A DNA stretch of 64,000 bases. It comes from Escherichia coli. Its GTDB lineage: Bacteria > Pseudomonadota > Gammaproteobacteria > Enterobacterales > Enterobacteriaceae. The stretch lies in assembly GCF_044324785.1 (NCBI RefSeq), contig NZ_CP172127.1, one strand, 5' to 3'. The notes under the pieces were generated by a model, which worked only from the letters and a program-made list of their open reading frames with translations, did no database searches and was not told the DNA's origin. Below are positions 13,568 to 52,706 of this stretch, one piece after another (the stretch's first letter is position 1; each line of letters starts with the position of its first letter). The translations under genes and the position numbers were made by a program.

Positions 13568-16500
13568 TTACACCTCCACGCGGCCCAGCAGATAATGATG
13601 ATGCTGGTGGACATGGCTAATGATGCGGCACATATCGTTCAGCTCCGGTGGTACGTTGTTGAACTGACCTTCGCTGTCGATGTTTAACACCCAGCTTTGG
13701 TTATTCAGACGTACTCGTACCCGGCAATCTTCCACAAGGAAGCCTGGGTTGCTGCTGTTATCAAAGTCTTGCGACAGGCTGAAGACGGTGATTTTGTCTT
13801 TGTACGGTTTACCGTTCCACGGACAGAACTGAGCGCAGTTGCCGCATTCGTTACAGTAAGCGTCGAGGTGCAGCGTCTGGAAACGGTTCTGGAAGCCAGG
13901 GACCGCAATGGAGACGTTGGCGCGGTTCGGGCAGACATCCACACACTTGCTGCAAACGTAGTTACATTCAAGGCAGCGAGCAGCTTCCTGCGCGACAAAC
14001 GCATCACGATCGTCACTGTTCACCAGCGTGATAGAGATATCGCCTTTACGTTGATAGATTTCCGCCGGATTGACGTTGTTCCAGTATTTATCGTTCTGGT
14101 GGGAACGGATATTTTCCCGACTAAGGATGGCATCGGTCGCCCGACGCGCGGTTCCGACAGCAGCGACAATGGAGGATGGTCCGCGCTGTACGTCGCCGAT
14201 CATAAAGACGTCAGTCAGACGAGTTTCGCCATTATGGTCGACGTCTGGCCAGCCGTTTTTGTCCAGCGGCACGCCCATCGCATTCAGGGCTTCAGTATCC
14301 TGCTGTTCACCAATGGCGGTGATCAGGCTGTCTACATGCAGTGTTACTGTTTCGTTGGTTTCAACCGGACGGCGACGACCTTTCTCATCAGGTTCGCCAA
14401 GCGACATAACGCGCAAGGTTAAGGTGCCATCAGCATCGAAACGTTCCGGATTATTCAGGAAACGGAACTCCACGCCGTCGTGCAACGCTTCTTCATACTC
14501 TTCGCGCCATGCTGGCATCTCTTGCAGTGAACGACGGTAAACGACCGTTGCTTTTTCTACGCCTGGAACGCGTAACGCCGCACGAGCGCAGTCCATTGCC
14601 GTGTTACCCGCCCCGACAACGACCACATGTTTGCCCAGCTTGAGCGCTGTGCCCTTGTTGTATTCACGCAGGAAGGGGAGTGATTTCCAGACATTTTGGT
14701 TGTCGCCCGCCAGTTTCACACCGCTATTTTTATCAGTGCCGGTGGCAATCAGAACATAGTGGAAGCCCTGATTTTTTAACTGTTCAACGGTCAAATCGGG
14801 TGAGCAGCCATACTCAAATTTCACGCCGTGAGCGGCAACAAAATCGATATCGTGCTGAATTAACTCTGCAGGAATACGGAACTGAGGAATGATATTTTTC
14901 ACCACGCCGCCCGCATTGGCTTCGCGTTCAAACAGCGTAACCGGATGGCCCGCTCTGGCAAGGAAGTAACCTGCTGCCAGACCCGCCGGACCTGCACCAA
15001 TCACGGCAACCGGATGGCGTGAACCAGAACCGGCTGGTTTGTGCCAGCGTTGCTTATATTCATCCCAACCTTTTTCCAGCGCGACTTTTTTCAGTTCGCG
15101 GATATTCAGCGCACTGTCGTAATCCAGGCGGGTACAGTTGTATTGGCACTGGTGATCGCAAATATGACCGGTAATGGCGGGCAGGGCGTTGCGTTGGTAG
15201 ATGAGTTCCAGTGCGTCGGCATAGCGGTGTTCGCCAAGCAGACGGATGTATTCCGGAATATCCTGTTTAATGGCGCAAGCAGTAACGCACGGTGCAACGT
15301 AGCAGTCGGTCAGCGGCAGGTCTTCTGCCACTTCAATACGCTCTTCTGGCTTCCAGTGTTTCTGAGTGTATTCCATGGTTAACGCGTCTGCTGCCAGTTT
15401 GTTCAGTCGTTCGACGTCAACATGGTCAAGCCCCCAGGCGTCGGAGCCTTCCAGCTCGCGCATGCAGGCACTTAAGCGCAGATAGCCGCCAGGTTTCAGC
15501 AGGTCGGTTGCCATCGTGATAGGGCGAATACCAGTATCAAAAATATCGCGGATAGTCAGCTGACTGGCACCACCGGAATAAGAAATGGGCAGTTTGCCGT
15601 CAAAGGCGCGAGAGAGAACTGCTGCAACATTGATGGAGAGCGGGAACAGCGCACGGCCTGACATATACATCTCTTCACCAGGCAGTGCGCCTTTATTGTT
15701 GATGGTGCCGAGAGTGTTAGTCAGTTTTACGCCAAAGCCGAGTGATTTTTCTTTTGCCAGTGCCATCAGACGTTCCAGCATTTCCAGTGCTTGCGTCAGC
15801 TTGAGGTCGTGATCAAATGACTCTTCTTTTAAGCCTATGTAACCGAAACCGCAGACATCGAGGATCTCACGAACACGCGCGTACCCCAGTAAGGTCGGGT
15901 TGAGTTTCACAAAGGTATTGAGCCCTTTTTCTTCCAGCATGTAGCGGCAAATGGCTTCGATTTCATGCGGAGGACAGCCGTGCATGGTGGAGAGGGTGAC
16001 GCCCTGCACCATGCTGGTGGGGATGCGAGCGGGTAAGGCTTGCAAGCTTTCGCGTTTTTCCTGCAATCCGTGGCGGGCTAAAAATGCGTCATCCTGGAGT
16101 AATTTATTCAGCGTATCGCGATATTGAGCGAATTTCGGATGGTCAGATGCGTCCATCATATTGTCGATGAACTGTTGCATCGGCGGTTGCTTAATACCTT
16201 CGAGGTTGTAACCGACGCTCATATTAAAGATGAACGATTTACCGGAATCAGAAGGCTGGAACATCGCTTCGAGAAGGTGCAGGGCAAACCAGGCTTTGAG
16301 GTATTCATCCCAGGCTTTAAGCAGGGTAAATTCGGTGGACCATTCGGTGTTAAAGCACTCGTCTTCGGCATCAATACAGGGCTTTTCCAGCTCCAGGCGG
16401 TCAAGAATTTGGACGGTTTTTAGTTCGATGAAGCGTCCGCCAGTCAGCCAGGAAGTGACAATATTTTGCGCGAGCTGCGTGTGCGGGCCAGCGGCAGGGC

Positions 16501-33487: not shown

Positions 33488-33561
33488 GCGGGCGTAGTTC
33501 AATGGTAGAACGAGAGCTTCCCAAGCTCTATACGAGGGTTCGATTCCCTTCGCCCGCTCCA
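33488..33561 (+). tRNA. glyU: tRNA-Gly (anticodon CCC)
   Basis: 74-nt sequence GCGGGCGTAGTTCAATGGTAGAAC...TTCGATTCCCTTCGCCCGCTCCA with cloverleaf stems, anticodon loop cTTCCCAAg and encoded 3' CCA. Confidence 0.9.
33544..33561 (+). repeat. attL core (3' end of glyU)
   Basis: Exact 18-bp copy of the sequence at 52689-52706. Confidence 0.75.
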
Positions 33562-33725
33562 AACAAACATTTCTCAACGTCTACTGAAGTCCATCAAATC
33601 CACGAATATCAAGCCTTTCAGCCATTTTCATAGCTTATTAACGTCTACTCACAACTACCAGAATCTACACACAGAAGTGTATAGTAATGCGTATAGGACA
33701 AAATTTATTTTTTGGAGCTATACAC

Positions 33726-34940
33726 ATGCTGCTTTCAGACCTTGCTATCAGGCGCGCGAAGCCGAAAGAAAAGGCTTATACACTCAATGACGGTAACGGG
33801 CTTTCGTTACTCATTGAGCCGAACGGCTCGAAAGGGTGGCGACTACGTTACAGATTTGCAGGAAAGCCCAAAATGTTGTCGTTGGGCGTGTACCCTGATG
33901 TGTCTCTGTCTGATGCCAGAGCGGCAAGGGATGAGGCTAAAAGGCTTCTTGCTGGTGGTATAAATCCAAGTGAGGCCAGAAAAGCTCAAAAGCGAGAACA
34001 GGCGAGCAAATTTGGCAATACTTTTGAGGGTATCGCTCGCGAATGGTATGAAAAGCGGATCGACAGGTGGTCATCGTCATACGCCGAGGAAATGATCGAG
34101 ACGTTTGAAAAAGACGTTTTTCCGTACATTGGCGGCAGGCCGATCGCAGAAATTAAGCCAATGGAGTTGCTTGCGGTTCTCTCCCGTCTTAATGACCGTG
34201 GGGCGACCGAAAAATTGCGTAAGGTTCGCCAGCGATGCGGCGAGGTGTTCCGGTACGCAATCATCACCGGACGCGCTGAATATAACCCCGCACCAGATCT
34301 GGCAAGCGCATTTGCTCCACACAAAAAAGAGCATTATGCCTATTTGAAGGCCGACGAACTGCCGGAATTTTTCCGCGTTCTTAATACGTACACCGGAAGC
34401 CAGATCGTCAAGCTGGGTATGCGATTATTGATTCTGACAGGGCTCCGGCCAGGGGAATTACGACAGGCAGAATGGCAGGAGATCGATTTTGATAATCGTT
34501 TGTGGGAAGTGCCTAAAGAACGAATGAAGATGCGCCGTCCTCATTGTGTGCCGCTTTCAGAACAGGCGATCGCTATTCTGGAACAGTTAAAACACATGAC
34601 GGGGCAGTATCAGTTTATTTTCCCTGGTCGAATCCAGCACAGTAAGCCGATGAGTGAAATGGCGATGAACGTGCTTATTCGTCGTATTGGCTATTCTGGG
34701 CGCGTTACTGGTCATGGGTTCCGGCACACGATGAGCACGATTTTACATGAGCAGGGCTATAACACCGCGTGGATAGAAACGCAGCTTGCACACGTTGATA
34801 AGAACTCAATTCGTGGCACGTACAATCATGCGCAATATCTGGACGGGCGGCGCGAGATGCTCCAGTGGTACGCCGACTATATGGACTCACTGGAACAGGG
34901 CGGCAACGTGGTGCATGGCAAGTTCGGAAAATGTGGATGA
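33726..34940 (+). CDS. int: Tyrosine recombinase, P4-family integrase
   Basis: N-terminus MLLSDLAIRRAKPKEKAYTLNDGNGLSLLIEPNGSKGWRLRYRFAGKPKMLSLGVYPDVSLSDAR is the P4-type integrase arm-binding signature; C-terminal catalytic residues (R..HGFRHT..Y); ATG at 33726 with GGAG RBS preferred over the ORF-track start at 33687. Confidence 0.85.
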   Translation: MLLSDLAIRRAKPKEKAYTLNDGNGLSLLIEPNGSKGWRLRYRFAGKPKMLSLGVYPDVSLSDARAARDEAKRLLAGGINPSEARKAQKREQASKFGNTFEGIAREWYEKRIDRWSSSYAEEMIETFEKDVFPYIGGRPIAEIKPMELLAVLSRLNDRGATEKLRKVRQRCGEVFRYAIITGRAEYNPAPDLASAFAPHKKEHYAYLKADELPEFFRVLNTYTGSQIVKLGMRLLILTGLRPGELRQAEWQEIDFDNRLWEVPKERMKMRRPHCVPLSEQAIAILEQLKHMTGQYQFIFPGRIQHSKPMSEMAMNVLIRRIGYSGRVTGHGFRHTMSTILHEQGYNTAWIETQLAHVDKNSIRGTYNHAQYLDGRREMLQWYADYMDSLEQGGNVVHGKFGKCG

Positions 34941-35062
34941 CTGGTTGAGTATACAGTAGTAGACTTTGAGCGACGAAAGAAAAAGCTGTGTCTAGGGTCG
35001 CTCCCGAAAAACCGTATACCTCGACGGGCTGGCACAGCCACTACAGTAGAGGACGCTGAGGT

Positions 35063-35866
35063 GTGCGTATGATTGATATTCATGCCGAATTAAACGAATA
35101 CAAAAAAGATTTTATTTCTTTACGTGAATTTCTTGAGGTCGTGCTTAAGGTCGCTGGTGATGATTATGATGTTTCAGATCTCATAACTTGGATACTCAGG
35201 AGAATAAGCGGAGAACATATCCGCCTGTACACAGTAAATGAATTTAAGCTGTTGGAATCTTTTTGTAACCCGTATCGGGATGAATTTGATTATGATGTTC
35301 TTTATAGAAATCTGGATGCGGTTCGGAAACATGGTTGTTTACCTGGTGAGAGGGATGAAAATGGTTTTCTGGTGTCCGGTTATTGGGAAGATCCCGAATT
35401 TGAGAACATTGGATTTATAAGGGGTGAAATTTTCGCAATTTTTCCCGATGTCCTTGACGCGTTAACGAAGCTGGAAGGCGCTAACTCTTCTGAAAATGAC
35501 GAGGTACAAGGACGCGATATTGAAAAGAAAGAGTTGCGTACAGAGGATGATTTATTATCCCAAATCGCAATGCTGGAAAGAGAAAACGCAGAGTTAAGGG
35601 CAAGGATAGAGCAGTTAGAGCAAGAGCGCCCGATACACTTATATAAATACTGGGATAAAGACCCATTAGCTAAGGCTATTGAGATTAGAAACAGAGAGTG
35701 GGCCAATTACGATCCAGAAAATGATTTTGCCACCAGGGGAAATCAAGAAGCGATAACCAGGGAGCTTAAGCAGTGGGGGGCAAGTAATGCTCTTGCAACG
35801 CTCATAGAGAGGACTGCCTGCCCTATTAACCGAGACAACAGCCAAAAGAACGCAAAGCCGGATTAA
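35063..35866 (+). CDS. Hypothetical protein (coiled-coil C-terminus), integrase-adjacent
   Basis: 267-aa ORF; acidic, with a heptad-like segment (LLSQIAMLERENAELRARIEQLEQE); no recognisable catalytic motif. Confidence 0.45.
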   Translation: MRMIDIHAELNEYKKDFISLREFLEVVLKVAGDDYDVSDLITWILRRISGEHIRLYTVNEFKLLESFCNPYRDEFDYDVLYRNLDAVRKHGCLPGERDENGFLVSGYWEDPEFENIGFIRGEIFAIFPDVLDALTKLEGANSSENDEVQGRDIEKKELRTEDDLLSQIAMLERENAELRARIEQLEQERPIHLYKYWDKDPLAKAIEIRNREWANYDPENDFATRGNQEAITRELKQWGASNALATLIERTACPINRDNSQKNAKPD

Positions 35867-35881
35867 CGCACCATACCGCAT

Positions 35882-36024
35882 ACCCTGAGGGTGATTTACT
35901 GTTACCCTGAGGGTATTTTTTTATCTTCCCCGTCAATTTTACCATCACCCTTAGGGTAGATTTCCTCCCGATTACCATCACCCTTAGGGTTAATTTCCTT
36001 CCGGTAACCATTAGGCCTGAGGGT
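35882..36024. repeat. Cluster of five near-palindromic 11-bp repeats (ACCCTGAGGGT / ACCCTTAGGGT) upstream of alpA
   Basis: Copies at 35882, 35904, 35947, 35980 and 36016 (the last as CCTGAGGGT); two copies sit inside a 17-bp direct repeat ACCATCACCCTTAGGGT. Confidence 0.5.
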
Positions 36025-36093
36025 ATGAAAATATTCGTTATTTCTGTGCCATGATTACCTCGTCAAATTGAGTAGACGTTATGAGGTAAATAG

Positions 36094-36291
36094 ATGTCAA
36101 ATACGCTTATTCGTTTAACAGAAGTTCAGCGTAGAACTGGATATAGCAAGGCATGGATTTATCGCCTTATGGGGCAAGGTAAATTTCCTGCATCAGTTAA
36201 AATTGGCTCGCGAGCGATTGCTTTCGTTGAAAGTGAAATTGACGAATGGATCAATCAGCGTATTGCCGAATCACGCGGAACGGCTGCCTGA
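36094..36291 (+). CDS. alpA: AlpA-family phage regulatory protein (excisionase/transcriptional regulator-like HTH)
   Basis: 65 aa; MSNTLIRLTEVQRRTGYSKAWIYRLMGQGKFPASVKIGSRAIAFVESEIDEWI matches the AlpA/Vis-type HTH pattern; RBS present. Confidence 0.8.
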   Translation: MSNTLIRLTEVQRRTGYSKAWIYRLMGQGKFPASVKIGSRAIAFVESEIDEWINQRIAESRGTAA

Positions 36292-36366
36292 TTAAATAGC
36301 TACGGGTTATTGCCCAAGCTATCCACTAGCAAATAAAAAGTAACTTAATTCGATAGCGGAGTTTTT

Positions 36367-37191
36367 ATGAAACTGCGAAAAACGCCCGTACAGGGGCAGG
36401 GCTTTGTTCGGCCTGAAAACCAGAATCTGCAAAATTTCGGCGAAATTATCCCGGTTATTTCCGGCGTTATTGGCGGGCGTGAAGCCGCTGTTGTTAGCGC
36501 AAAAGCGTTACACAAAGCGTTGGGCGTGGGAAAAGACTTCTCTACATGGATCACTGATCGTATCTCTGAATATGACTTCACCATTGGGTACGATTACTCA
36601 GTCCATAAAACAATTTCCCCAAATTTGGGGAAAAGCCCGAATGGCGAGGCTTACAGCAAGATTAAGCACTCTGGCAGACCCGGTAAAGACTATCTGTTAA
36701 GTGTCGGAATGGCGAAAGAACTGGCAATGATCGAACGCACCGAACAGGGCCGCGCCGTTCGTCAGTACTTCATCAAATGCGAGGAGGAGCTACACAAAGT
36801 AGCGCCAGTGCGTTCCGCAGCGTTACGCCGTGAACTGAAAGCCCGTATCACCGTTGCCAGCTACTTTAAGCCGATGTGTGCCGCGCTGGAGGCGTACCGC
36901 GCTGAACTGGGTAAAAACACGCTCCAGCACCACTACACCACGGAAGCCAATATGCTGGCGCGTATCGTGCTGGGTGGCATGACTGCAAAACAGTGGGCGC
37001 AGGCGAACGGCATCACAGGCGAACCACGCGACCACATGAGCACGCTGCAGCTTGAGCACCTTTCTTACCTTGAGCAGAGCAATATCACGCTGATTGAGTT
37101 AGGCCAGGACTACCACCAGCGGAAAGCTGAATTAATTCGTCTTTCGCAACGCTGGTTAGCCCGCCGCATGGAGGTGAGCAGCCATGCGTAA
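36367..37191 (+). CDS. Phage antirepressor-like regulatory protein
   Basis: 274 aa; N-terminal segment (VVSAKALHKALGVGKDFSTWITDRI) resembles AntA/Rha-type phage regulatory domains. Confidence 0.5.
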   Translation: MKLRKTPVQGQGFVRPENQNLQNFGEIIPVISGVIGGREAAVVSAKALHKALGVGKDFSTWITDRISEYDFTIGYDYSVHKTISPNLGKSPNGEAYSKIKHSGRPGKDYLLSVGMAKELAMIERTEQGRAVRQYFIKCEEELHKVAPVRSAALRRELKARITVASYFKPMCAALEAYRAELGKNTLQHHYTTEANMLARIVLGGMTAKQWAQANGITGEPRDHMSTLQLEHLSYLEQSNITLIELGQDYHQRKAELIRLSQRWLARRMEVSSHA

Positions 37192-37741
37192 ACCTGTCTT
37201 TTATGCCGGGCGCACTGAAATCTCTGTCATTAAATTCGATGACATTCAGGTGCGCATAGTGAGTATCAACGGCGAGCCGTGGTTTGTTGGCGCTGATGTG
37301 TGTGCTGCGCTGGAAATCAGCAATGTTACTGATGCTGTTTCAGTTCTGGATAACGACGAGGTAATGACCCTAGCTTTAACCGAGGGGCATTCCGGTAAGC
37401 GTGGTGGTGCCAGAAGCTGGAATGTTGTCTCTGAATCAGGTTTCTACAAACTGATCGCCCGCAGCCGTAAAGCTTCCACACCTGGCACATTTGCGCACCG
37501 TTTCAGTAACTGGGTATTCCGCGAGGTTATTCCTTCAATCCGCAAAACGGGGAGTTATGGTGTTCCGTTTGCCATGCTGAATGATTTCAGTAAACGCCAG
37601 GCTGCATATCAACAGGAAGCCAGCAAACGCGGTTACAGGTTACAGCAATGCAAAGAGGCAAAAGATGCACTGGAACGAGAAGAGCGGGCGCTATGGCGTA
37701 AATATCAGCCTGATTTTCTGGAGGGTGAAAGCAATGTGTAA
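37184..37741 (+). CDS. Bro-N domain protein (phage antirepressor family)
   Basis: 185 aa; GEPWFVGADVCAALEISNV...VLDNDE...ESGFYKLIARSRK...FSNWVFREVIPSIRKTGSYG is the Bro-N signature. Confidence 0.7.
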   Translation: MRKPVFYAGRTEISVIKFDDIQVRIVSINGEPWFVGADVCAALEISNVTDAVSVLDNDEVMTLALTEGHSGKRGGARSWNVVSESGFYKLIARSRKASTPGTFAHRFSNWVFREVIPSIRKTGSYGVPFAMLNDFSKRQAAYQQEASKRGYRLQQCKEAKDALEREERALWRKYQPDFLEGESNV

Positions 37742-37909
37742 CGATCCGAACGTTACAGAAAGAAAAAGCGCCCCGTTGCTGGATAACAGGCAAAACAAAG
37801 GCGACCGGGATAGGTCGCCAGTGGGAACAAAGGAAATCAAACGCATCGCCAACAATGCCAGATTTGCGGCTGGTGGGCAATGTGATCAGTGTGCTGGCTT
37901 GCTGGTGGG

Positions 37910-38107
37910 CTATTCCTGCTCTTTAGCATCGCCATACTGCGATGTTTTCCAGGTATGCGATCCCATTTTTGTGCGCCTGTACTCTTTTAAGAACTTCTCA
38001 AGGACAAACGCACATGGCGCAAATCTTTCCTGTTCTTGTTCGCTTACCGCATTTTTGCGTTGTTTTTTCCTGGATGAGGATAATTTCTTTAATGATTTGT
38101 CAGTCAT
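37910..38107 (-). CDS. Small hypothetical protein (paralogue of 38165..38362)
   Basis: 65-aa minus-strand ORF in a region where the overlapping plus-strand ORF looks non-coding; shares the C-terminal KEQE ending and a basic/acidic pattern with its neighbour. Confidence 0.3.
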   Translation of the reverse strand: MTDKSLKKLSSSRKKQRKNAVSEQEQERFAPCAFVLEKFLKEYRRTKMGSHTWKTSQYGDAKEQE

Positions 38108-38164
38108 CGTAGATACCTGTAACCCTGTGCGCCACAGTTCACCGCACCACGGCGCTGGTGATGG

Positions 38165-38362
38165 TTACTCCTGCTCTTTGGCCTTCCGGCGCTGTTCATA
38201 TTTTAATTTGCGTCCACAGGCATCTAAGACCCATGCGGAAAAATTAGCACTAGGATTAGTTAATTTTTCTTGTTCAACACTGGCATCAATCCCATCTATA
38301 AGCTCGTGCGGGAATCGAATATTTTTCTTTGCTGATTTGTTGTTTGTGTTTCCGCTAGACAT
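38165..38362 (-). CDS. Small hypothetical protein, candidate regulator divergent from the replication operon
   Basis: 65-aa minus-strand ORF whose 5' end abuts the operator-like palindromes at 38391-38469. Confidence 0.3.
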   Translation of the reverse strand: MSSGNTNNKSAKKNIRFPHELIDGIDASVEQEKLTNPSANFSAWVLDACGRKLKYEQRRKAKEQE

Positions 38363-38390
38363 TGGTACACCTCACTTAAATGGATTTGAT

Positions 38391-38469
38391 GGGCGCACAC
38401 AATACAGCAAAAAAAGTGAGAAGTTAAGTATTGACATGTGCGCACACATGATTTTAATCTGTGCGCACA
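38391..38469 (+). promoter_or_regulatory. Sigma70-like promoter overlapped by three GTGCGCAC palindromic operator-like sites
   Basis: -35 TTGACA (38431-38436), 16-bp spacer, -10 TTTAAT (38453-38458); palindrome GCGCACA at 38393-38399, TGTGCGCACACA within the spacer (38437-38448) and GTGCGCACA at 38461-38469. Confidence 0.45.
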
Positions 38470-38567
38470 GTTTGGGTTGCATTGCTCAAATTAAGCAACG
38501 CCCCGCAGTGCTCGCAACACATGCAGGGCGTCTAACCACCAACGATAGAAAGCGTATCGAGGTAGCT

Positions 38568-38771
38568 ATGTTAAATCATACCACACACCCGCAAGGGCGG
38601 GACTCGCACAACCTGAATAAATACATCTGGCGTTTTATCGCCCTGAGCACCGCACAACCACGCGTAATACACATCGAGGCCGCCAGCGAACAGGAAGCCC
38701 GTCAGCAATCCCCGGCTGGCTGCGTGATGGTATTTACTGCCCGCATCCGTCAGGGGGAATACTATGCGTGA
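38568..38771 (+). CDS. Small hypothetical protein (first ORF downstream of the operator-controlled promoter)
   Basis: 67 codons (MLNHTTHPQGRDSHNLNKYIWRF...) with GAGG RBS; corresponds to the only plausible coding part of ORF-track entry 37581..38771. Confidence 0.3.
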   Translation: MLNHTTHPQGRDSHNLNKYIWRFIALSTAQPRVIHIEAASEQEARQQSPAGCVMVFTARIRQGEYYA

Positions 38772-39021
38772 TGAACGATTTATTCTTCTGGAGCAAAAAT
38801 TCAGTGAAGCGCCAAAAAATGAAATTGATGCTCTTTTGCATATCGCGAATATGCTAAAAGTAGCAACGTTCCTTATAGTTTCGAATCTGGAGCATGAAAC
38901 GGCGTTAGATATACTGAACAGTGCTGTCGATTATTCTGAATATATTGCCGAGGATAAATACAGGCAATTACCAGATTTGTTAGCCCATAAATATAAAGAA
39001 GAACCTCACACCGGGAAATAA
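38764..39021 (+). CDS. Hypothetical protein
   Basis: 85-aa ORF in the same orientation and tightly packed with the replication gene. Confidence 0.4.
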   Translation: MRDERFILLEQKFSEAPKNEIDALLHIANMLKVATFLIVSNLEHETALDILNSAVDYSEYIAEDKYRQLPDLLAHKYKEEPHTGK

Positions 39022-39023
39022 AC

Positions 39024-39326
39024 ATGAAGAAGATTAAATTTACTGGCTTAAATGCCAGCGGACAGACTCACCCGAAAATCAGGATCGGGGATATTTTCCG
39101 GGATAAATATGGTGACAGCGTGGTTATTAATTCCGTGTATGAACGGCACATTACATACCGCCGCGCAGGGTACGACTATGACTGTGTGATGCCCGTTCAT
39201 CAGTTCCGGCGTGATTTTTCACTGGTATGTGCAGTACCACGCAGTAAGCCCACCAGTAAAGAGAAAGCACGGGCAAATATTCAGGTAATAAAGAACATGA
39301 TTAACGCATTCAGGGGCAAGAAATGA
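39024..39326 (+). CDS. Hypothetical protein
   Basis: 100-aa ORF; stop overlaps the start of the 708-aa replication gene (ATGA). Confidence 0.4.
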   Translation: MKKIKFTGLNASGQTHPKIRIGDIFRDKYGDSVVINSVYERHITYRRAGYDYDCVMPVHQFRRDFSLVCAVPRSKPTSKEKARANIQVIKNMINAFRGKK

Positions 39327-48273: not shown

Positions 48274-51029
48274 TGAAACAGGCATGTGTTGAAGCTATTG
48301 CGCAGACACTTGGTCGCCAGCCAAAGGCTGATGAGCTGAAAAATATCGAAGATCGTATCAAAGAAGCAGTGCAACATGTGCACAGAAAGAATGCAAAAGA
48401 AGGCAAAAGTGGTATTCCTGATGCTCAAACATACATGGATGCTGCAGAACTGGTACGCCAGCGTGTGGTTCATGATGTGTACAAGAAAAGACAGCGTGTT
48501 GCCCAGAATGCGATCGCCATCAGTAAAATTACTGACACTCTCGATGCTAACATCCCGCCTGATCAGCAGACACCTGTTAATTTGCAGCAGTTTATTTTTG
48601 CTGGCCGACGATCGAGAGACAAAGCTGATATCTCCGTTGCTTCTGCTGAAGAGCTTGCAATTGGGGCATATCAGGACTGGTCCCGTCAGCTCAGTGCTGA
48701 ACTTCTAAAAGCAGGTGATGACGTCCGCAAATTCTTCGAGCAGAGCAGGGCGCTTGGAGAGCAGCGGTTTCGGAGTGTATTCGACAGGCAGGCGGCAAAG
48801 TCTGCACAACTCCAGATCCTGAAAGAAATATATGGCGAAGATACCGGGAATCCCCTGGCGAAGAAAATTGCACAGATTTGGAAGGATGTAACAGGCCGTG
48901 TTCGTCATGAGATGAACGACAATGGCTTTGACATAGGCCTGCGAGAAGACTGGCATACGCCATATGTGGATGATGCTGACCTTATTCGCAATGCCGGGCG
49001 CGAAGAATGGCTGGCATCGTTACCAGTGGCAGAGCAAGCTACAGCACGTCTTTCAGGTCGCCAGCCACCGATTGAGTTTGCCCGCCAGAAATGGGTTGAT
49101 GACGCTTACAACACGCAGGATCGCAGCAATTACGTTAATCCTGACGGCAGCATTATGAATGACGTCGAGTACCGTCAGGCACTGGAAGCGATCTTTGAAA
49201 CGAAGGCCACTGATGGGGCAAACAAAATTGAGCCTGGTACATTTATGGGAGCCGGAGGAATAAAGAGCCGTGGTTCTCAGCACAGGGTGATGGCGTTCAA
49301 GGATGCGCAGTCACACTTCGCCTATATGGAACGATACACTCAGCAGCCGCTGGTGGGGGTGATGATGTCGCACCTGCAATCATCATCCAGGGATTTGGGC
49401 GTCGTTAAAGCCTTTGGTCCGGACGCCGAAAGAAACTTTTCCCTGGTACTGGATCGCATCTATAAGCGCGCAGTAACAGGCGGGAAACGCAAAAAAGAAA
49501 TGGAGGATGAGGCCAAATTAGTTGCCCGTATGTTCAACTCAATGGCTGGCCTAAATGGTGTCGCTTCATCGAGTGTGTTCTCTTCAGCAGTTGGTGGTCT
49601 GCGTAACCTGATGACCAGCGCCATGCTTGGCACCAGCGTACTGACAGCAACCAGCGACCAGGCAATTATGCGGGCAAATGCGCAGGCGCTGGGCTTTACC
49701 CGTGGTGGAATGCGGCTTTCCGTTAACACTATCAAAAACCTGTTTAGTGGAGATGCCAAAAAGGCGAATGCTGAACTCGGTCTGCTGGTGGATTCACATG
49801 CTGCTGTGGTTTCGAAAATGGGCGGGTTTGACTTGTCTCGCGGCATAACTGGCTGGTTCGCAGAGAAGACACTGAAGTGGTCCGGGCTGATCGCTATGGA
49901 CCGCGCAAACAAAGCGTCGTTTGGTCTCCTGATGTACAAAAACATTGGCGAGCTGACCAGAAAATTTAAGACGCTGGACGATATGAAAGGAACCGATAAA
50001 ACCATTCTGGCTAACAAGGGATGGAGCAATGAGGACTGGGCCATCATGGCAGCGGCAGAACTCAGGCCGATGACTACTGCCGGGCATATGGGGATGACGC
50101 CAGACGCGATTTACGCTGTGCCCGATAACGTAATAGCCGACATTATGGCAGACCGTATTACCCGGATTCGTGCCGGGAGTGAAAAGGCACTGGCAGCCCT
50201 TGGAGATCTCCCTCCAGAACGCCTGAAACGGATGAAAGAAGCATTCGACGCTGAGGCTGAGCAGACCATCACGCGCATGATTCGTAATGCACGCGCTGAA
50301 GCAGCCCAGAAATTGCTGGGAATTACGCACGGTGAGATGACCAATGCTGTGACCACCGCTACGGGTATTGATACATATGCCCGTGATGATGCTGGCGAGT
50401 TAATGAAGAGCTTCATGCTCTTCAAAACAACCCCATTTGCTGGATTTCGGCAACTTGTTAACAGAACACGGGATTTGGACACCGTTCCGGCCATTAAATT
50501 TCTGGCCTCATATATCGGGGGAACAACTCTTGCTGGTATGTTTGCGATCCAGATGAACAGTTTGTTAAATGGTAATGATCCGCTGGATATGACAAAACCA
50601 ACCACATGGGTTCAGGCTTTACTGAAAGGTGGTTCGTTCGGTATCTACGGTGATTTTATTTTCCAGGACCATACGCAATATGGCTCCAGAATCGGTGCCA
50701 CTATGGGTGGCCCTGTGTTGAGCTTTGCAGAGCAGTTAACAAAATTACTGATTACTAACCCACAGAAGGCTCTACAGGGTGAAGAAACATCATTCGGTGC
50801 CGATGCACTGAAAACAGCCCGCATGATCACCCCATTCGCAAACCTGTGGTATGCGAAAGCGATAACCAATCACCTGATATTGCAACAACTTCAGGAGATG
50901 GCAAACCCTGGTTACAATGATCGAGTAAGGGACCGCGCGCAACGGGAGTTCGACATAACGAGTTGGTGGGAACCGGGTGCTATTGCGCCACGTAGAGCAC
51001 CGGATTTTGGAAAGGCGGTGGGGAACTGA
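48273..51029 (+). CDS. Large hypothetical protein (918 aa), cargo operon gene 3
   Basis: ATG at 48273 overlaps the upstream stop (TAATG) with a GAGGA RBS; the ORF-track start at 48252 is a GTG in the same frame; no recognisable catalytic motif. Confidence 0.6.
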   Translation: MKQACVEAIAQTLGRQPKADELKNIEDRIKEAVQHVHRKNAKEGKSGIPDAQTYMDAAELVRQRVVHDVYKKRQRVAQNAIAISKITDTLDANIPPDQQTPVNLQQFIFAGRRSRDKADISVASAEELAIGAYQDWSRQLSAELLKAGDDVRKFFEQSRALGEQRFRSVFDRQAAKSAQLQILKEIYGEDTGNPLAKKIAQIWKDVTGRVRHEMNDNGFDIGLREDWHTPYVDDADLIRNAGREEWLASLPVAEQATARLSGRQPPIEFARQKWVDDAYNTQDRSNYVNPDGSIMNDVEYRQALEAIFETKATDGANKIEPGTFMGAGGIKSRGSQHRVMAFKDAQSHFAYMERYTQQPLVGVMMSHLQSSSRDLGVVKAFGPDAERNFSLVLDRIYKRAVTGGKRKKEMEDEAKLVARMFNSMAGLNGVASSSVFSSAVGGLRNLMTSAMLGTSVLTATSDQAIMRANAQALGFTRGGMRLSVNTIKNLFSGDAKKANAELGLLVDSHAAVVSKMGGFDLSRGITGWFAEKTLKWSGLIAMDRANKASFGLLMYKNIGELTRKFKTLDDMKGTDKTILANKGWSNEDWAIMAAAELRPMTTAGHMGMTPDAIYAVPDNVIADIMADRITRIRAGSEKALAALGDLPPERLKRMKEAFDAEAEQTITRMIRNARAEAAQKLLGITHGEMTNAVTTATGIDTYARDDAGELMKSFMLFKTTPFAGFRQLVNRTRDLDTVPAIKFLASYIGGTTLAGMFAIQMNSLLNGNDPLDMTKPTTWVQALLKGGSFGIYGDFIFQDHTQYGSRIGATMGGPVLSFAEQLTKLLITNPQKALQGEETSFGADALKTARMITPFANLWYAKAITNHLILQQLQEMANPGYNDRVRDRAQREFDITSWWEPGAIAPRRAPDFGKAVGN

Positions 51030-51343
51030 TGACGAGAGATAAAATTGAATATATTGCTTCTCTTAAATATGAAGCTGAGAAATGGAGAAGGATTGGCGGG
51101 TGGGGAACATTAATATCACTCTCTGCTTTACTTATAGACTCCTGGTTCAGACATATTGATGCAGCATCATTACTTTTTGAATCAGCAGTACTTGGTGGAT
51201 TCATTTGCTGTTGGGGTGGTAATTATGATCGGGCGTCCAAACATAAGAGAGAACTTGACGCGATATGTTTTGCTTTATTCGGTAAGGATTACGAAAGTTC
51301 TGACCTTGATATAATTGAATTCAACAAAACGGAACTATCGTGA
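51029..51343 (+). CDS. Small protein with one hydrophobic segment (104 aa), cargo operon gene 4
   Basis: TGATG coupling to gene 3; predicted membrane-spanning stretch (LISLSALLIDSWF...VLGGFICCWGG); followed by a terminator. Confidence 0.45.
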   Translation: MTRDKIEYIASLKYEAEKWRRIGGWGTLISLSALLIDSWFRHIDAASLLFESAVLGGFICCWGGNYDRASKHKRELDAICFALFGKDYESSDLDIIEFNKTELS

Positions 51344-51351
51344 CATGTCAC

Positions 51352-51376
51352 AGGCCGCTTTCGCGGCCTTGTTTTT
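51352..51376 (+). terminator. Rho-independent terminator of the cargo operon
   Basis: Stem aggccgc / gcggcct with loop tttc, followed by TGTTTTT; 9 nt after the stop of the 104-aa gene. Confidence 0.6.
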
Positions 51377-52045
51377 AACGAATGCCACCGCCGCCCGGGC
51401 GGGAATTCGCAGATAAAAAAGCACGCTGCACGGTTTTATTAATACTTATACCATTAGGATTGATCCTTCAATGGACAATCCTTCCATCGTGTGGCCAGCC
51501 ATTCATATTCTTTGTCTTTTCTTCAGTATCGGCTTTGCATCTTCTACACCCTGAAAGATGTCGTTTTATGGTGTATCTGATGATTTATTCCCTAACAATA
51601 GATATTCGAAAAATTAATCAGTTAAAACAATTATTTGGATAATTTCAGGTAAAACTATCTTAATCTTCTGGTGGATCTCAATGCGTAGTGACGGTATCGG
51701 GATTAAGGGCGTGGATATTCGCGATATATGCCGCTACACCCCTCAACAGTAATAGATATGAGCTTTTCACGCTCTCCTTTCACTGCTGAGAACGGCAACA
51801 ACGTGCCACAGGAACGCGCTGTAATCGATTCTGACGCACTTAATTGCGTTGGGTAATGGTTTTTGCCAGCCTGTGGGGGTAACTCTGTTTTATGAGGCTT
51901 TGGCTATAGTGCAAAAATACACTTTGTCTTGCCTCTCAATTTGATGAGACTGGAACGACAACAGGACAGACCACCAGCAACAGTTACCGTATTCAGCCGT
52001 TCTGTGGCACCAGTGGAACTATCAACCCCTGCTTTCAGCAATGTG

Positions 52046-52203
52046 TTTGCGGGTTATTTTGGGGCGTTTGCGGGTTATTTGGGATGTTTTGCGGGTTATG
52101 TGATGCTTGAATAATGAACAGTGTATTTTGCAACATATTGATACTAAAGAACAAAAAATAGTTAGCATACTAAGATAACCCGGTAACCCGCATAACCCGC
52201 ACT
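52046..52203. repeat. Iteron cluster B: three inverted and three direct copies of the same (A/G)TAACCCGC motif
   Basis: TTTGCGGGTTAT at 52046, 52067 and 52088; ATAACCCGG at 52175, GTAACCCGCA at 52183, ATAACCCGCAC at 52193; same motif as cluster A, ~10.5 kb away, just inside attR. Confidence 0.55.
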
Positions 52204-52688
52204 GTTTTGTATATATATACGAAAAATTGCATTCAGGAGGGGGGGAGCGAAATCCCTACAATCCATTGCTTATGGGACCGCCCGCCTCGTCAAATTTTTA
52301 CACCCGCGAAATAAAAAAATACTTCACGCTGGTGGGCATGATGCTGATATGGGAGGCTTCCATAACGCCACCATTCGGAACTATGCAAATCTGCATAGAA
52401 AAGGGGATGCCTGATACAATACCCTCGCCCGATAAAATCACACCGATAAACTCATCTGCCACGAGTAGAAAGAGCGAACGAACCCGATACGCAGTAATGC
52501 TTGTCGGGTACAGCTTTTTAAGGCGGCTGTAGATATCAGGCCATCCGTGATCATCCACCAGCGAGATAGCCGATAACGATGACGCATAACCCTCAAGCGA
52601 GGGATAAATGTGTATAGAAATGTGTATAGAATTGATTTTAGAACTCGCAGGATTCGCGCTATTACTGGCCTTGTGTGATGTTGTATTG

Positions 52689-52706
52689 TTCCCTTCGCCC
52701 GCTCCA
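52689..52706 (+). repeat. attR core (duplicated glyU 3' end)
   Basis: Exact 18-bp copy of the glyU 3' end, 19.1 kb downstream of the tRNA. Confidence 0.75.

Follow-up and report, generated by a model that had tools for sequence, protein, structure and literature searches.

The DNA examined here (the window) is a 64,000-nucleotide stretch of contig NZ_CP172127.1 from Escherichia coli assembly GCF_044324785.1, and it contains, at the tRNA-Gly(CCC) gene glyU, an integrative element in which a replicon of the phage-inducible chromosomal island (PICI) type carries three large virion genes related to gp15, gp16 and gp17 of the podophage epsilon15. The glyU gene (33488..33561, plus strand) was located by ARAGORN, by the Rfam tRNA model and through an exact repeat of its 3' end. 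The last 18 nt of the gene (33544-33561) form the attL core, and an exact copy on the plus strand at 52689..52706 forms the attR core. These are the two exact copies of TTCCCTTCGCCCGCTCCA in the 64-kb window; a third was absent from the window even when two mismatches were allowed, with 0 expected from 100 shuffles. A preliminary description of this DNA, made from the sequence alone, had placed exact 18-bp repeats of glyU around some 19 kb of DNA, and these repeats are present, their identity reaching 19 bp, one base past the 18-bp core. The inserted unit is 19,145 bp long.

A synthetic empty site, consisting of the 400 bp to the left of attL joined to the 400 bp to the right of attR, was searched in complete E. 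coli genomes, and a match was required to lie in one contiguous place and to cover at least 80% of the query. The uninterrupted actS/tRNA-Gly/GH15 site was found in 3,392 of 5,426 genomes, and because the empty site is contiguous in these genomes, the segment is an insertion and not ancestral core. This is the comparison with insertion-free genomes that the preliminary description had set as its test, and glyU is indeed followed there by the GH15 gene. Beyond attR the window continues with the GH15 gene and then with type III secretion genes (an InvF-like regulator, SctC, SctV and SctN) that identify the E. coli type III secretion system 2 (ETT2) island, with a G+C content of 34-46% versus about 50% in the element, in agreement with the AT-rich secretion island that had been described there. 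The same description had read the arrangement as island stacking at a locus targeted twice; the element does lie between glyU and ETT2, but a second integration at glyU is not demonstrated, because the window holds no third copy of the repeat. ETT2 adjoins glyU in the empty-site genomes. In the AH19D088 genome, which carries the element at glyU, yqeG directly follows attR (L013, 19662-21342) and both ETT2 and the GH15 gene are absent; the element therefore occupies glyU independently of ETT2. Given this carrier, and given that a 17-kb body of the element is also found at yicC-dinD (see below), ETT2 is incidental to the element.

All major genes of the element are on the plus strand, and strand is given below only where it differs. 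Three consecutive genes encode homologues of epsilon15 gp15 (43682..46213, 843 aa, with a transglycosylase-like domain; phrog_992, E=5e-291), gp16 (46213..48273, 686 aa) and gp17 (48273..51029, 918 aa, a virion structural/ejection protein; phrog_684, E=1e-294). The three large proteins match PHROG families of head and virion structural proteins, with E-values down to the 1e-294 of gp17; Pfam gave no match for the gp16 homologue and NCBIfam none for any of the three. At the amino acid level, the gp15 and gp17 homologues are 80% and 89% identical to their epsilon15 counterparts and the gp16 homologue 83% and 74% in its two conserved flanks, and 87% of the length of the three-gene DNA aligns with epsilon15 at about 77-79% nucleotide identity. 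The next gene (51029-51343) encodes a 104-aa small membrane protein with two hydrophobic stretches, 82% identical in amino acids to its positional counterpart behind gp17 in a Uetakevirus prophage of Erwinia dacicola. It is followed by a Uetakevirus late-operon terminator region (51339-51413, with a stem-loop at 51352-51369 in a terminator scan), which matches an E. coli Uetakevirus prophage over 75 bp at 98.7% identity and phiV10 over 59 bp at 96.6%. On the left, similarity to phiV10 begins at 43671, 11 nt before the start codon of gp15. Based on these edges, the captured unit consists of gp15, gp16, gp17, the small membrane protein gene and the terminator.

In epsilon15 and phiV10, the gp15-gp17 genes come after gp11 and gp12 (T7 tail-tubular-like), gp13, and gp14 (T7 gp14 family), and true Uetakevirus prophages carry gp11-gp14 immediately upstream of gp15-17. 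According to a review, gp15-gp17 correspond in epsilon15 to the ejection proteins of T7, and epsilon15 shows a core stack (PMC8954989); these proteins are virion DNA-delivery components. No homologues of terminase, portal, capsid, gp11-gp14, tailspike or lysis genes were found in the element, and lambdoid replication genes are absent from it, unlike in a complete Uetakevirus prophage. The earlier statement that capsid, terminase and lysis genes are missing is correct for those three classes; the homologues of gp15-gp17, however, mean that the element does carry morphogenetic genes, and its likely role changes with them.

The left edge of the unit retains a trace of what stood there before. At the head of the morphogenetic operon is a gene for a 68-aa ribbon-helix-helix-like protein (43379..43585, phrog_4934), and a homologue with 90% amino acid identity precedes a protease-capsid fusion gene in another PICI locus, L037. 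The 637-aa fusion protein of L037 begins MNRWYTIKA and matches phrog_133 and phrog_4523. In the window, the small gene is followed at 43585..43647 by 20 codons reading MNRWYSIKAEG..., and positions 43264-43610 are 88% identical to L037 6882-7228. By the shared start and this similar flank, the 20 codons at 43585..43647 are what is left of the 5' end of a prohead protease-major capsid fusion gene. This stub marks the left recombination joint of the module, which sits behind the same promoter region and small regulator as an L037-type capsid gene. Together, the stub and the likeness to L037 indicate that the module was inserted into the morphogenetic operon of a PICI bearing a capsid gene.

The remainder of the backbone serves integration, regulation and replication. 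Next to the tRNA gene is, as the preliminary description had proposed, a P4-type tyrosine integrase (33687..34940; phrog_1, E=7e-79), with the Pfam architecture Arm-DNA-bind_3, Phage_int_M and Phage_integrase; its start in the RefSeq copies is the methionine corresponding to 33726. An AlpA-family excisionase/regulator (36094..36291; phrog_2790 and phrog_66, a helix-turn-helix regulator in RefSeq) lies downstream of int in the same direction as the replication genes. These include a 708-aa DUF927 primase/replication initiator (Pri-Rep, 39323..41449; phrog_1139, E=4e-174), a single-stranded DNA-binding protein (SSB, 41660-42082) and a ProQ/FinO-like protein (42119-42616), the latter two by PHROG and NCBIfam. 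A repeat finder revealed a putative replication origin at 52045..52201 (no strand assigned), with three GTTTGCGGGTTAT iterons 21 bp apart (52045-52099), an A+T-rich spacer and inverted iteron copies (52172-52201), a layout that would be expected of an origin. Apart from this iteron region, the final 1.3 kb before attR holds no convincing genes. The surrounding sequence (51992-52565) is conserved in two islands that share the primase, L010 and L011, as expected if the putative origin is matched to that primase.

As in Gram-negative PICIs such as EcCICFT073 (PMC6739421), a terminal integrase with att repeats is followed by a rightward alpA, the Pri-Rep protein is accompanied by its own putative origin, capsid, tail and lysis genes are absent, and a slot for morphogenesis or interference genes lies downstream of replication. 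The element differs from PICIs in its length (19.1 kb versus about 8 kb for the small PICI L011, which ends after a PerC-family gene and whose primase, SSB and ProQ genes are ~82% identical in nucleotides), in the three large virion internal-protein genes of a podophage where PICIs have no phage structural or lysis genes, and in its presumed helper, a podophage and not a lambdoid siphophage; no packaging-redirecting device (cos, TerS or Rpp) was detected in it. The closest backbone is that of the capsid-forming PICIs (cfPICIs; bioRxiv 10.1101/2022.09.08.507074), which have the primase (86-89% amino acid identity), SSB, ProQ and the 3' iteron region in common with the element, and which likewise encode part of their own virion and obtain the rest from a helper. 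We assign L010 (strain AST262) to these because of its capsid and terminase genes: it shares Icd, DUF4222, the DUF927 primase (87% nucleotide identity), SSB and ProQ with the element, and after ProQ, in the slot of the module, it carries major capsid protein, protease, portal, connector, HNH, TerS and TerL. Whereas cfPICIs encode this whole set and take only tails, the element has nothing of it left apart from the 20-codon stub and, encoding only internal/ejection proteins, would take capsid, tail and packaging from its helper. Among 80 primase relatives in IMG/VR, ~45 have the capsid module (detected by tblastn with the L010 capsid-module proteins), three have gp15-17, with primases 99-100% identical, and most of the rest have neither; the L010 capsid-module proteins were not found by tblastn in the gp15-17 loci. 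Primase relatives with 62-70% amino acid identity also lie beside large phage-like open reading frames (ORFs) in L084, L088-L092 and L094, several of these contigs being 22-58 kb long, and the DUF927 primase family may not be confined to satellites.

With the Uetakevirus prophages (epsilon15, phiV10) the element shares gp15-gp17, the small membrane protein gene and the late terminator, and these phages also carry P4-type integrase, AlpA, PerC and BRO-N genes. Their site is guaA-yfgI as opposed to glyU, and a cassette within the gp16 of the element (see below) was absent from all phages searched. Some predicted PICIs have proved to be intact Uetakevirus prophages (PMC10121019). P4-like satellites resemble the element in their tRNA-targeting P4-type integrase, their dependence on a temperate helper and their anti-repressor-type genes, which could cross-talk with the helper, but the helper of P4 is P2 and that of the element would be of the podophage type. 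Sid, Psu, Delta, epsilon, cos and P4 alpha-type functions were not found in PHROG scans of all ORFs, in which P4 proteins were not direct queries. With the diagnostic genes of both missing, the element is neither a typical P4 satellite nor a complete prophage, as had been stated, and the earlier picture of a satellite- or PICI-like replicon with a cargo operon holds for the regulation and replication backbone, although the cargo turns out to be phage virion genes.

Thirty-six complete E. coli genomes carry the satellite-type module at 96% identity or higher. In many genomes, the 17-kb body of the element (window 36709-52563, 98-99% identity) is located at yicC-dinD behind a different integrase and AlpA, and the family is thus mobile, with one body, two integrases and two sites. 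An ISVsa5 transposase lies inside the ejection module of the TUM9803 satellite copy, and an InsQ/TnpB-family gene is inserted in the copy of NZ_CM163382.1. The predicted attP junction (attR arm, core and attL arm, 37 nt exact) was absent from IMG/VR and was found in one metagenome contig, Ga0209547_100127, where its right arm is contiguous with an integrase 97.6% identical in amino acids to that of the window. This contig is a related element with a different body, not the element itself, and its attP shows that excision or tandem formation of this int/att module takes place in nature. The same contig (L098; 372-4967, 14392-14428) encodes an AlpA with 100% amino acid identity and a different virion-like set, comprising a 680-aa phrog_7694 protein with the RGIRNNNPGNL transglycosylase-like domain of gp15, head-protease-like pieces and a TerS-like helix-turn-helix protein; virion-protein payloads may be more varied in this glyU-type island family.

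Scanning IMG/VR with the gp17 homologue yielded 71 loci, of which 55 had phage context, defined by gp11-gp14 upstream of the gp17 homologue, six had satellite context and 10 were too short to call; the same scan of genome contigs yielded three loci, all true prophages. Three of the loci (L139, L141 and L149) form a second satellite lineage, with a primase 61% and an SSB 70% identical to those of the window. Their module consists of gp15 (74%), gp16 (75% and 68% in the flanks around a different middle), gp17 (87%) and a membrane protein resembling gp18, and what lies upstream of gp15 is unrelated to the corresponding window sequence. Because the gp17 of the window is nearer to some phage-context gp17 proteins (91% amino acid identity) than to that of the second lineage (87%), the two lineages probably captured or refreshed the module separately. 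One second-lineage contig, IMGVR_UViG_3300014936_000057 (19,241 bp; L171 and L141), is circularly permuted, running from alpA through primase, gp15-18 and accessory genes to an internal attP and int. Its attP core, CCCTTCACCCGCTCCA, is one mismatch from glyU, and its ends share a 45-nt imperfect repeat. This sequence is most simply read as an excised circle or a concatemer of some 19.2 kb. On its minus strand, five genes at 13977-16407 (171, 113, 58, 83 and 197 aa) separate the module from attP and could be accessory or defence genes.

Five further copies were compared with the window, three at yicC-dinD (L003, L004 and L014) and two at glyU (L002 and L013). The module ORFs are intact in all six copies. 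In gp16, 15-19 synonymous differences between copies are accompanied by 0-1 non-synonymous differences. For gp17, the ratio of non-synonymous to synonymous differences per site (pN/pS) is mostly 0.06-0.3, broadly similar to that of the primase, and reaches 0.6-0.9 only for the closest copies, with fewer than 10 differing sites. In comparisons with epsilon15, where synonymous sites are close to saturation, gp15 and gp17 have rate ratios (dN/dS) of 0.06 and 0.045. The module genes are thus under purifying selection, and the intact ORFs together with the few non-synonymous changes between copies exclude a decaying remnant.

The gp15 gene is chimeric. In a mosaic profile, nt 1 to ~1540, encoding the N-terminal 510 residues, are phiV10-like and the remainder is epsilon15-like, and in all copies identity to phiV10 falls sharply to ~40% after nt 1540. 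Over the first 1,500-1,540 nt, identity to phiV10 is 84.5% for the window copy, 88-89% for the three yicC-dinD copies and 99.1% for AH19D088. Satellite copies are also mosaic among themselves in this N-terminal part, with 69-100% identity per 150-nt window, against 97-100% in most of the module outside it. Phages of the phiV10 and epsilon15 types differ strongly in gp16 and gp17, and the satellite gp16, gp17 and gp15 C-terminus are of the epsilon15 type, with only 31% and 27% amino acid identity of gp16 and gp17 to phiV10 p19 and p20. In our reading, only the N-terminal part of gp15 has repeatedly recombined with phiV10-type phages, which suggests that this part must match the helper. For such recombination, satellite and phage DNA must come together in the same cells.

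Within gp16, residues ~265-490 (nt 47005-47682) form a cassette that takes the place of the unrelated middle of epsilon15 gp16. It has a G+C content of 40% versus about 50% around it and contains a HEALH motif, which is only a hint of a zincin-like fold. A word-indexed protein search gave no match for the cassette, an exhaustive search of 1.84 billion representative proteins returned only its own 74-aa fragment, and tblastn against 50,697 phage records gave no match; in IMG/VR the cassette is confined to the E. coli satellite lineage. A single-sequence AlphaFold model had a predicted local distance difference test (pLDDT) score of 52, too poor for a fold search. That the cassette is an injected effector is a possibility and nothing more.

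Co-occurrence of the satellite with Uetakeviruses was queried with a chimera joining 2.5 kb from the satellite gp16/gp17 genes to 2.0 kb from gp12, a phiV10 tail gene that is missing from the satellite. A phiV10-type gp12 was found at a second place in 24 of the 36 carriers, compared with any match in 522 of 5,390 other genomes (9.7%), giving an odds ratio of 18.7 (Fisher p=3e-16, or 1e-12 after notional collapse of near-duplicates). In AH19D088 the satellite occupies glyU (3.281-3.300 Mb), and the interval from guaA to yfgI holds a complete Uetakevirus prophage, whose genes include terminase, portal, capsid and gp11-gp14 as well as gp15-17 of the phiV10 type, an endosialidase tailspike and a lysis cassette. 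This prophage (L096/L097; NZ_CP196239.1, 3,710,560-3,750,044) has a tRNA-Arg gene inside the phage, and its endosialidase-type tailspike suggests K1-capsule specificity. At 19.1 kb the element is about half the length of the Uetakevirus genomes (39.1-39.7 kb), which makes two copies per headful plausible. A further ~12 E. coli genomes have epsilon15-type gp15-17 loci with 78% nucleotide identity to those of the satellite; these are presumably prophages and could be where the module came from, or could serve as alternative helpers.

In total, the element is an att-bounded integrative PICI-type replicon with a complete, selected Uetakevirus gp15-gp18 unit in its morphogenetic slot; it recombines with phiV10-type Uetakeviruses and is enriched in genomes that carry them, and relatives of it occur in excised form. 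From this we infer that temperate Uetakevirus podophages of the epsilon15/phiV10 group are its helpers, and we somewhat favour, on sequence comparison, the reading that this is a PICI-family satellite at glyU that depends on Uetakeviruses and supplies its own ejection apparatus. Under this model, infection by the helper or its induction would switch on AlpA, and the element would excise, replicate from its own origin and be packaged by the helper into helper-built capsids with helper tails. The satellite would add the distal part of the ejection apparatus, loaded into the helper capsids. Chimeric gp15 would be the adaptor, docking on the gp14/portal core of the helper through its 510 phiV10-like N-terminal residues and pairing with satellite gp16 and gp17 through its epsilon15-type C-terminus. 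Satellite particles would then enter cells through a satellite-specified channel, possibly bypassing blocks on helper ejection proteins and possibly delivering the gp16 cassette to the recipient, and helper virions that take up the foreign set might be impaired, with interference as a by-product. A bolder form of this model, which we put forward tentatively and consider doubtful as it stands, is that satellites re-arm helper podophage particles, with the gp15 adaptor recombining and so staying compatible as helpers change, and the orphan domain of gp16 acting as an injected anti-exclusion or anti-defence effector, and so gain entry into cells that block the helper, helper lysogens included.

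Several observations weigh against this reading. Its weakest link is the packaging route: no pac or cos site, TerS or Rpp was found, although a short pac site may escape detection, and the search for packaging signals (blastn and blastn-short against phiV10, epsilon15 and the E. coli Uetakevirus prophage) returned similarity limited to the module and terminator. The small proteins of the element had no match in the PDB, RppA included. Docking of the gp15 N-terminus on the helper core is drawn by analogy with the T7 gp14-gp15-gp16 core stack, and earlier genetic work (Guichard et al. 2013, as cited in PMC12391199) assigned gp15 and gp17 to the epsilon15 tail tube; since the tail-tube and core-stack placements differ, the exact virion position of gp15-gp17 is unsettled. 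The co-occurrence statistic ignores clonal relatedness, with the second places directly verified in one genome, and 12 of the 36 carriers have no phiV10-type gp12 gene. In AH19D088, the gp15 N-terminal part of the resident prophage is only 90.7% identical to that of the satellite, a level that does not support recent gene conversion with this prophage. Circular contigs could in principle also arise from tandem integrated copies.

The helper-like N-terminus of gp15 and its partners with 27-31% amino acid identity to those of the helper would also fit a main function in interference or defence, in which the non-cognate ejection set enters procapsids via gp15, helper virions fail, the host population is protected and the satellite spreads independently of the set. 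Blocking of helpers by morphogenesis proteins is known from PICIs (PMC6739421), and the strong co-occurrence with Uetakevirus prophages agrees with such a role. One poison subunit would be enough for it, however, with no need for three selected full-length genes (7.3 kb), a membrane gene and a terminator; the complete unit recurs in the second lineage, none of its proteins had a PADLOC match, and interference is compatible with an own ejection apparatus as a side effect of it. We therefore regard interference as unlikely to be the main function. The homology of the flanks to phiV10-type phages (85-99% on the left, 98.7% on the right), the mosaic gp15 N-termini and the satellite gp17 that is nearer to some phage proteins than to the second lineage could instead point to a recombination reservoir, a shuttle whose helper-homologous arms (1.5 kb of gp15 and the 75-bp terminator) swap ejection cassettes with no use for the satellite itself. 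Yet the gp15 C-terminus, gp16 and gp17 are nearly invariant among the E. coli satellite copies and the cassette-bearing gp16 is found in no phage, so that transfer of the module interior to phages is not seen, and selection within the satellite would be left unexplained; a reservoir is, in our judgement, quite improbable.

The stub of the capsid gene and a frameshifted PerC-family gene (see below) do show that the region has been rearranged, and the lineage in E. coli is narrow (its primases are 99-100% identical, and it is present in 36 of 5,426 genomes), as would be expected of an accidental chimera of a PICI and a fragment of a defective Uetakevirus prophage, its virion genes being decaying baggage. 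The intact ORFs in all copies, the 0-1 non-synonymous against 15-19 synonymous differences in gp16, the precise module edges, terminator included, the movement of the element between two att sites and the independent second lineage, found in excised form, make this very improbable. The original version, a satellite-like replicon with an unrelated cargo of benefit to the host, such as a defence or virulence system, is scarcely credible: although satellites often carry defence cargo and two proteins of 267 and 138 aa (see below) have no assignment, the homology of the operon to epsilon15 gp15-17 (77-79% in nucleotides, 80-89% in amino acids) contradicts it, and a defence system was rejected as a candidate for the operon since PADLOC gave no match for its proteins, the sole hit in the element being a weak partial PDC-S22 match of an Ant-like protein.

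Known satellites resize or steal helper capsids (P4, Staphylococcus aureus pathogenicity islands, PICIs), make their own capsids and steal tails (cfPICIs), or encode almost nothing (phage-inducible chromosomal minimalist islands). Ejection, virion or structural proteins go unmentioned in the SatelliteFinder paper, and a satellite with an ejection-protein payload was not described in the full-text literature searched, from which subscription journals are mostly missing. Judged by its genes, the element would be a PICI-family satellite with such a payload, which we found described for no other satellite. If a satellite supplying its own ejection apparatus is what the element is, satellite-helper conflict would have the ejection step as one of its targets, Uetakevirus-group podophages would be helpers in E. 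coli, and the copies would amount to a natural experiment separating the part of an ejection protein that has to fit the capsid core (the mosaic gp15 N-terminus) from the part that is free to differ. This would bear on recently described defences that act on DNA entry (PMC13128918, PMC13190303) and on the engineering of transducing particles with altered entry properties.

The remaining features of the element lie between the integrase and the module. The int-alpA RNA motif (Rfam RF02996, 34985..35052; cmscan 46.9 bits versus a gathering score of 35.8) is directly 3' of the integrase gene, between int and alpA. This motif and the tRNA are the only Rfam matches at E<=0.1, and a P1/P4-type c4/CI antisense RNA near the Icd-like gene (see below) was not found in that search. 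The motif is followed by the gene for a 267-aa coiled-coil protein (35063..35866) with no match in PHROG, NCBIfam, PADLOC or the PDB, which belongs to the exchangeable integrase module, being swapped along with int and alpA in the yicC-dinD copies. The slot after alpA (36323-37741) is variable. In the window it holds two anti-repressor-like genes assigned to PHROG Ant families, one of AntA/AntB type (36367-37191) and one with BRO-N (37184-37741), the BRO-N part being ~56% identical in amino acids to phiV10 p23, while L003, L004 and L014 have Rha with AntA/B and BRO-N, or Rha with a GIY-YIG nuclease and BRO-N, the BRO-N gene of L014 being frameshifted.

Two leftward genes of 65 aa each (37910..38362, minus strand; ORF list and RefSeq annotation of the 99.3% identical copy L002), of which the one at 38165-38362 belongs to the YlcI/YnfO family, diverge from the replication operon. 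After these genes come an Icd-like cell-division inhibitor (38568-38771; NCBIfam phage_ICD_like, 68.6 bits versus a cut-off of 25), an 85-aa protein (38764-39021) and a DUF4222 protein (39024-39326), the latter two by PHROGs and RefSeq names. A 396-aa ORF at 37581-38771 was rejected as spurious, with only its last ~67 codons, the Icd-like gene, being real. After ProQ come the gene for a 138-aa protein (42597-43013) with no match in Pfam or the PDB and a frameshifted PerC-family gene, followed by an intrinsic terminator at 43252-43273 in a terminator scan (43025..43273 for the two together). RefSeq marks this gene (43025-43250) as frameshifted in L002, L003, L004, L013 and L014 as well, and Uetakeviruses carry an intact PerC-type activator; the frameshift is either that of an old shared pseudogene or a programmed one.

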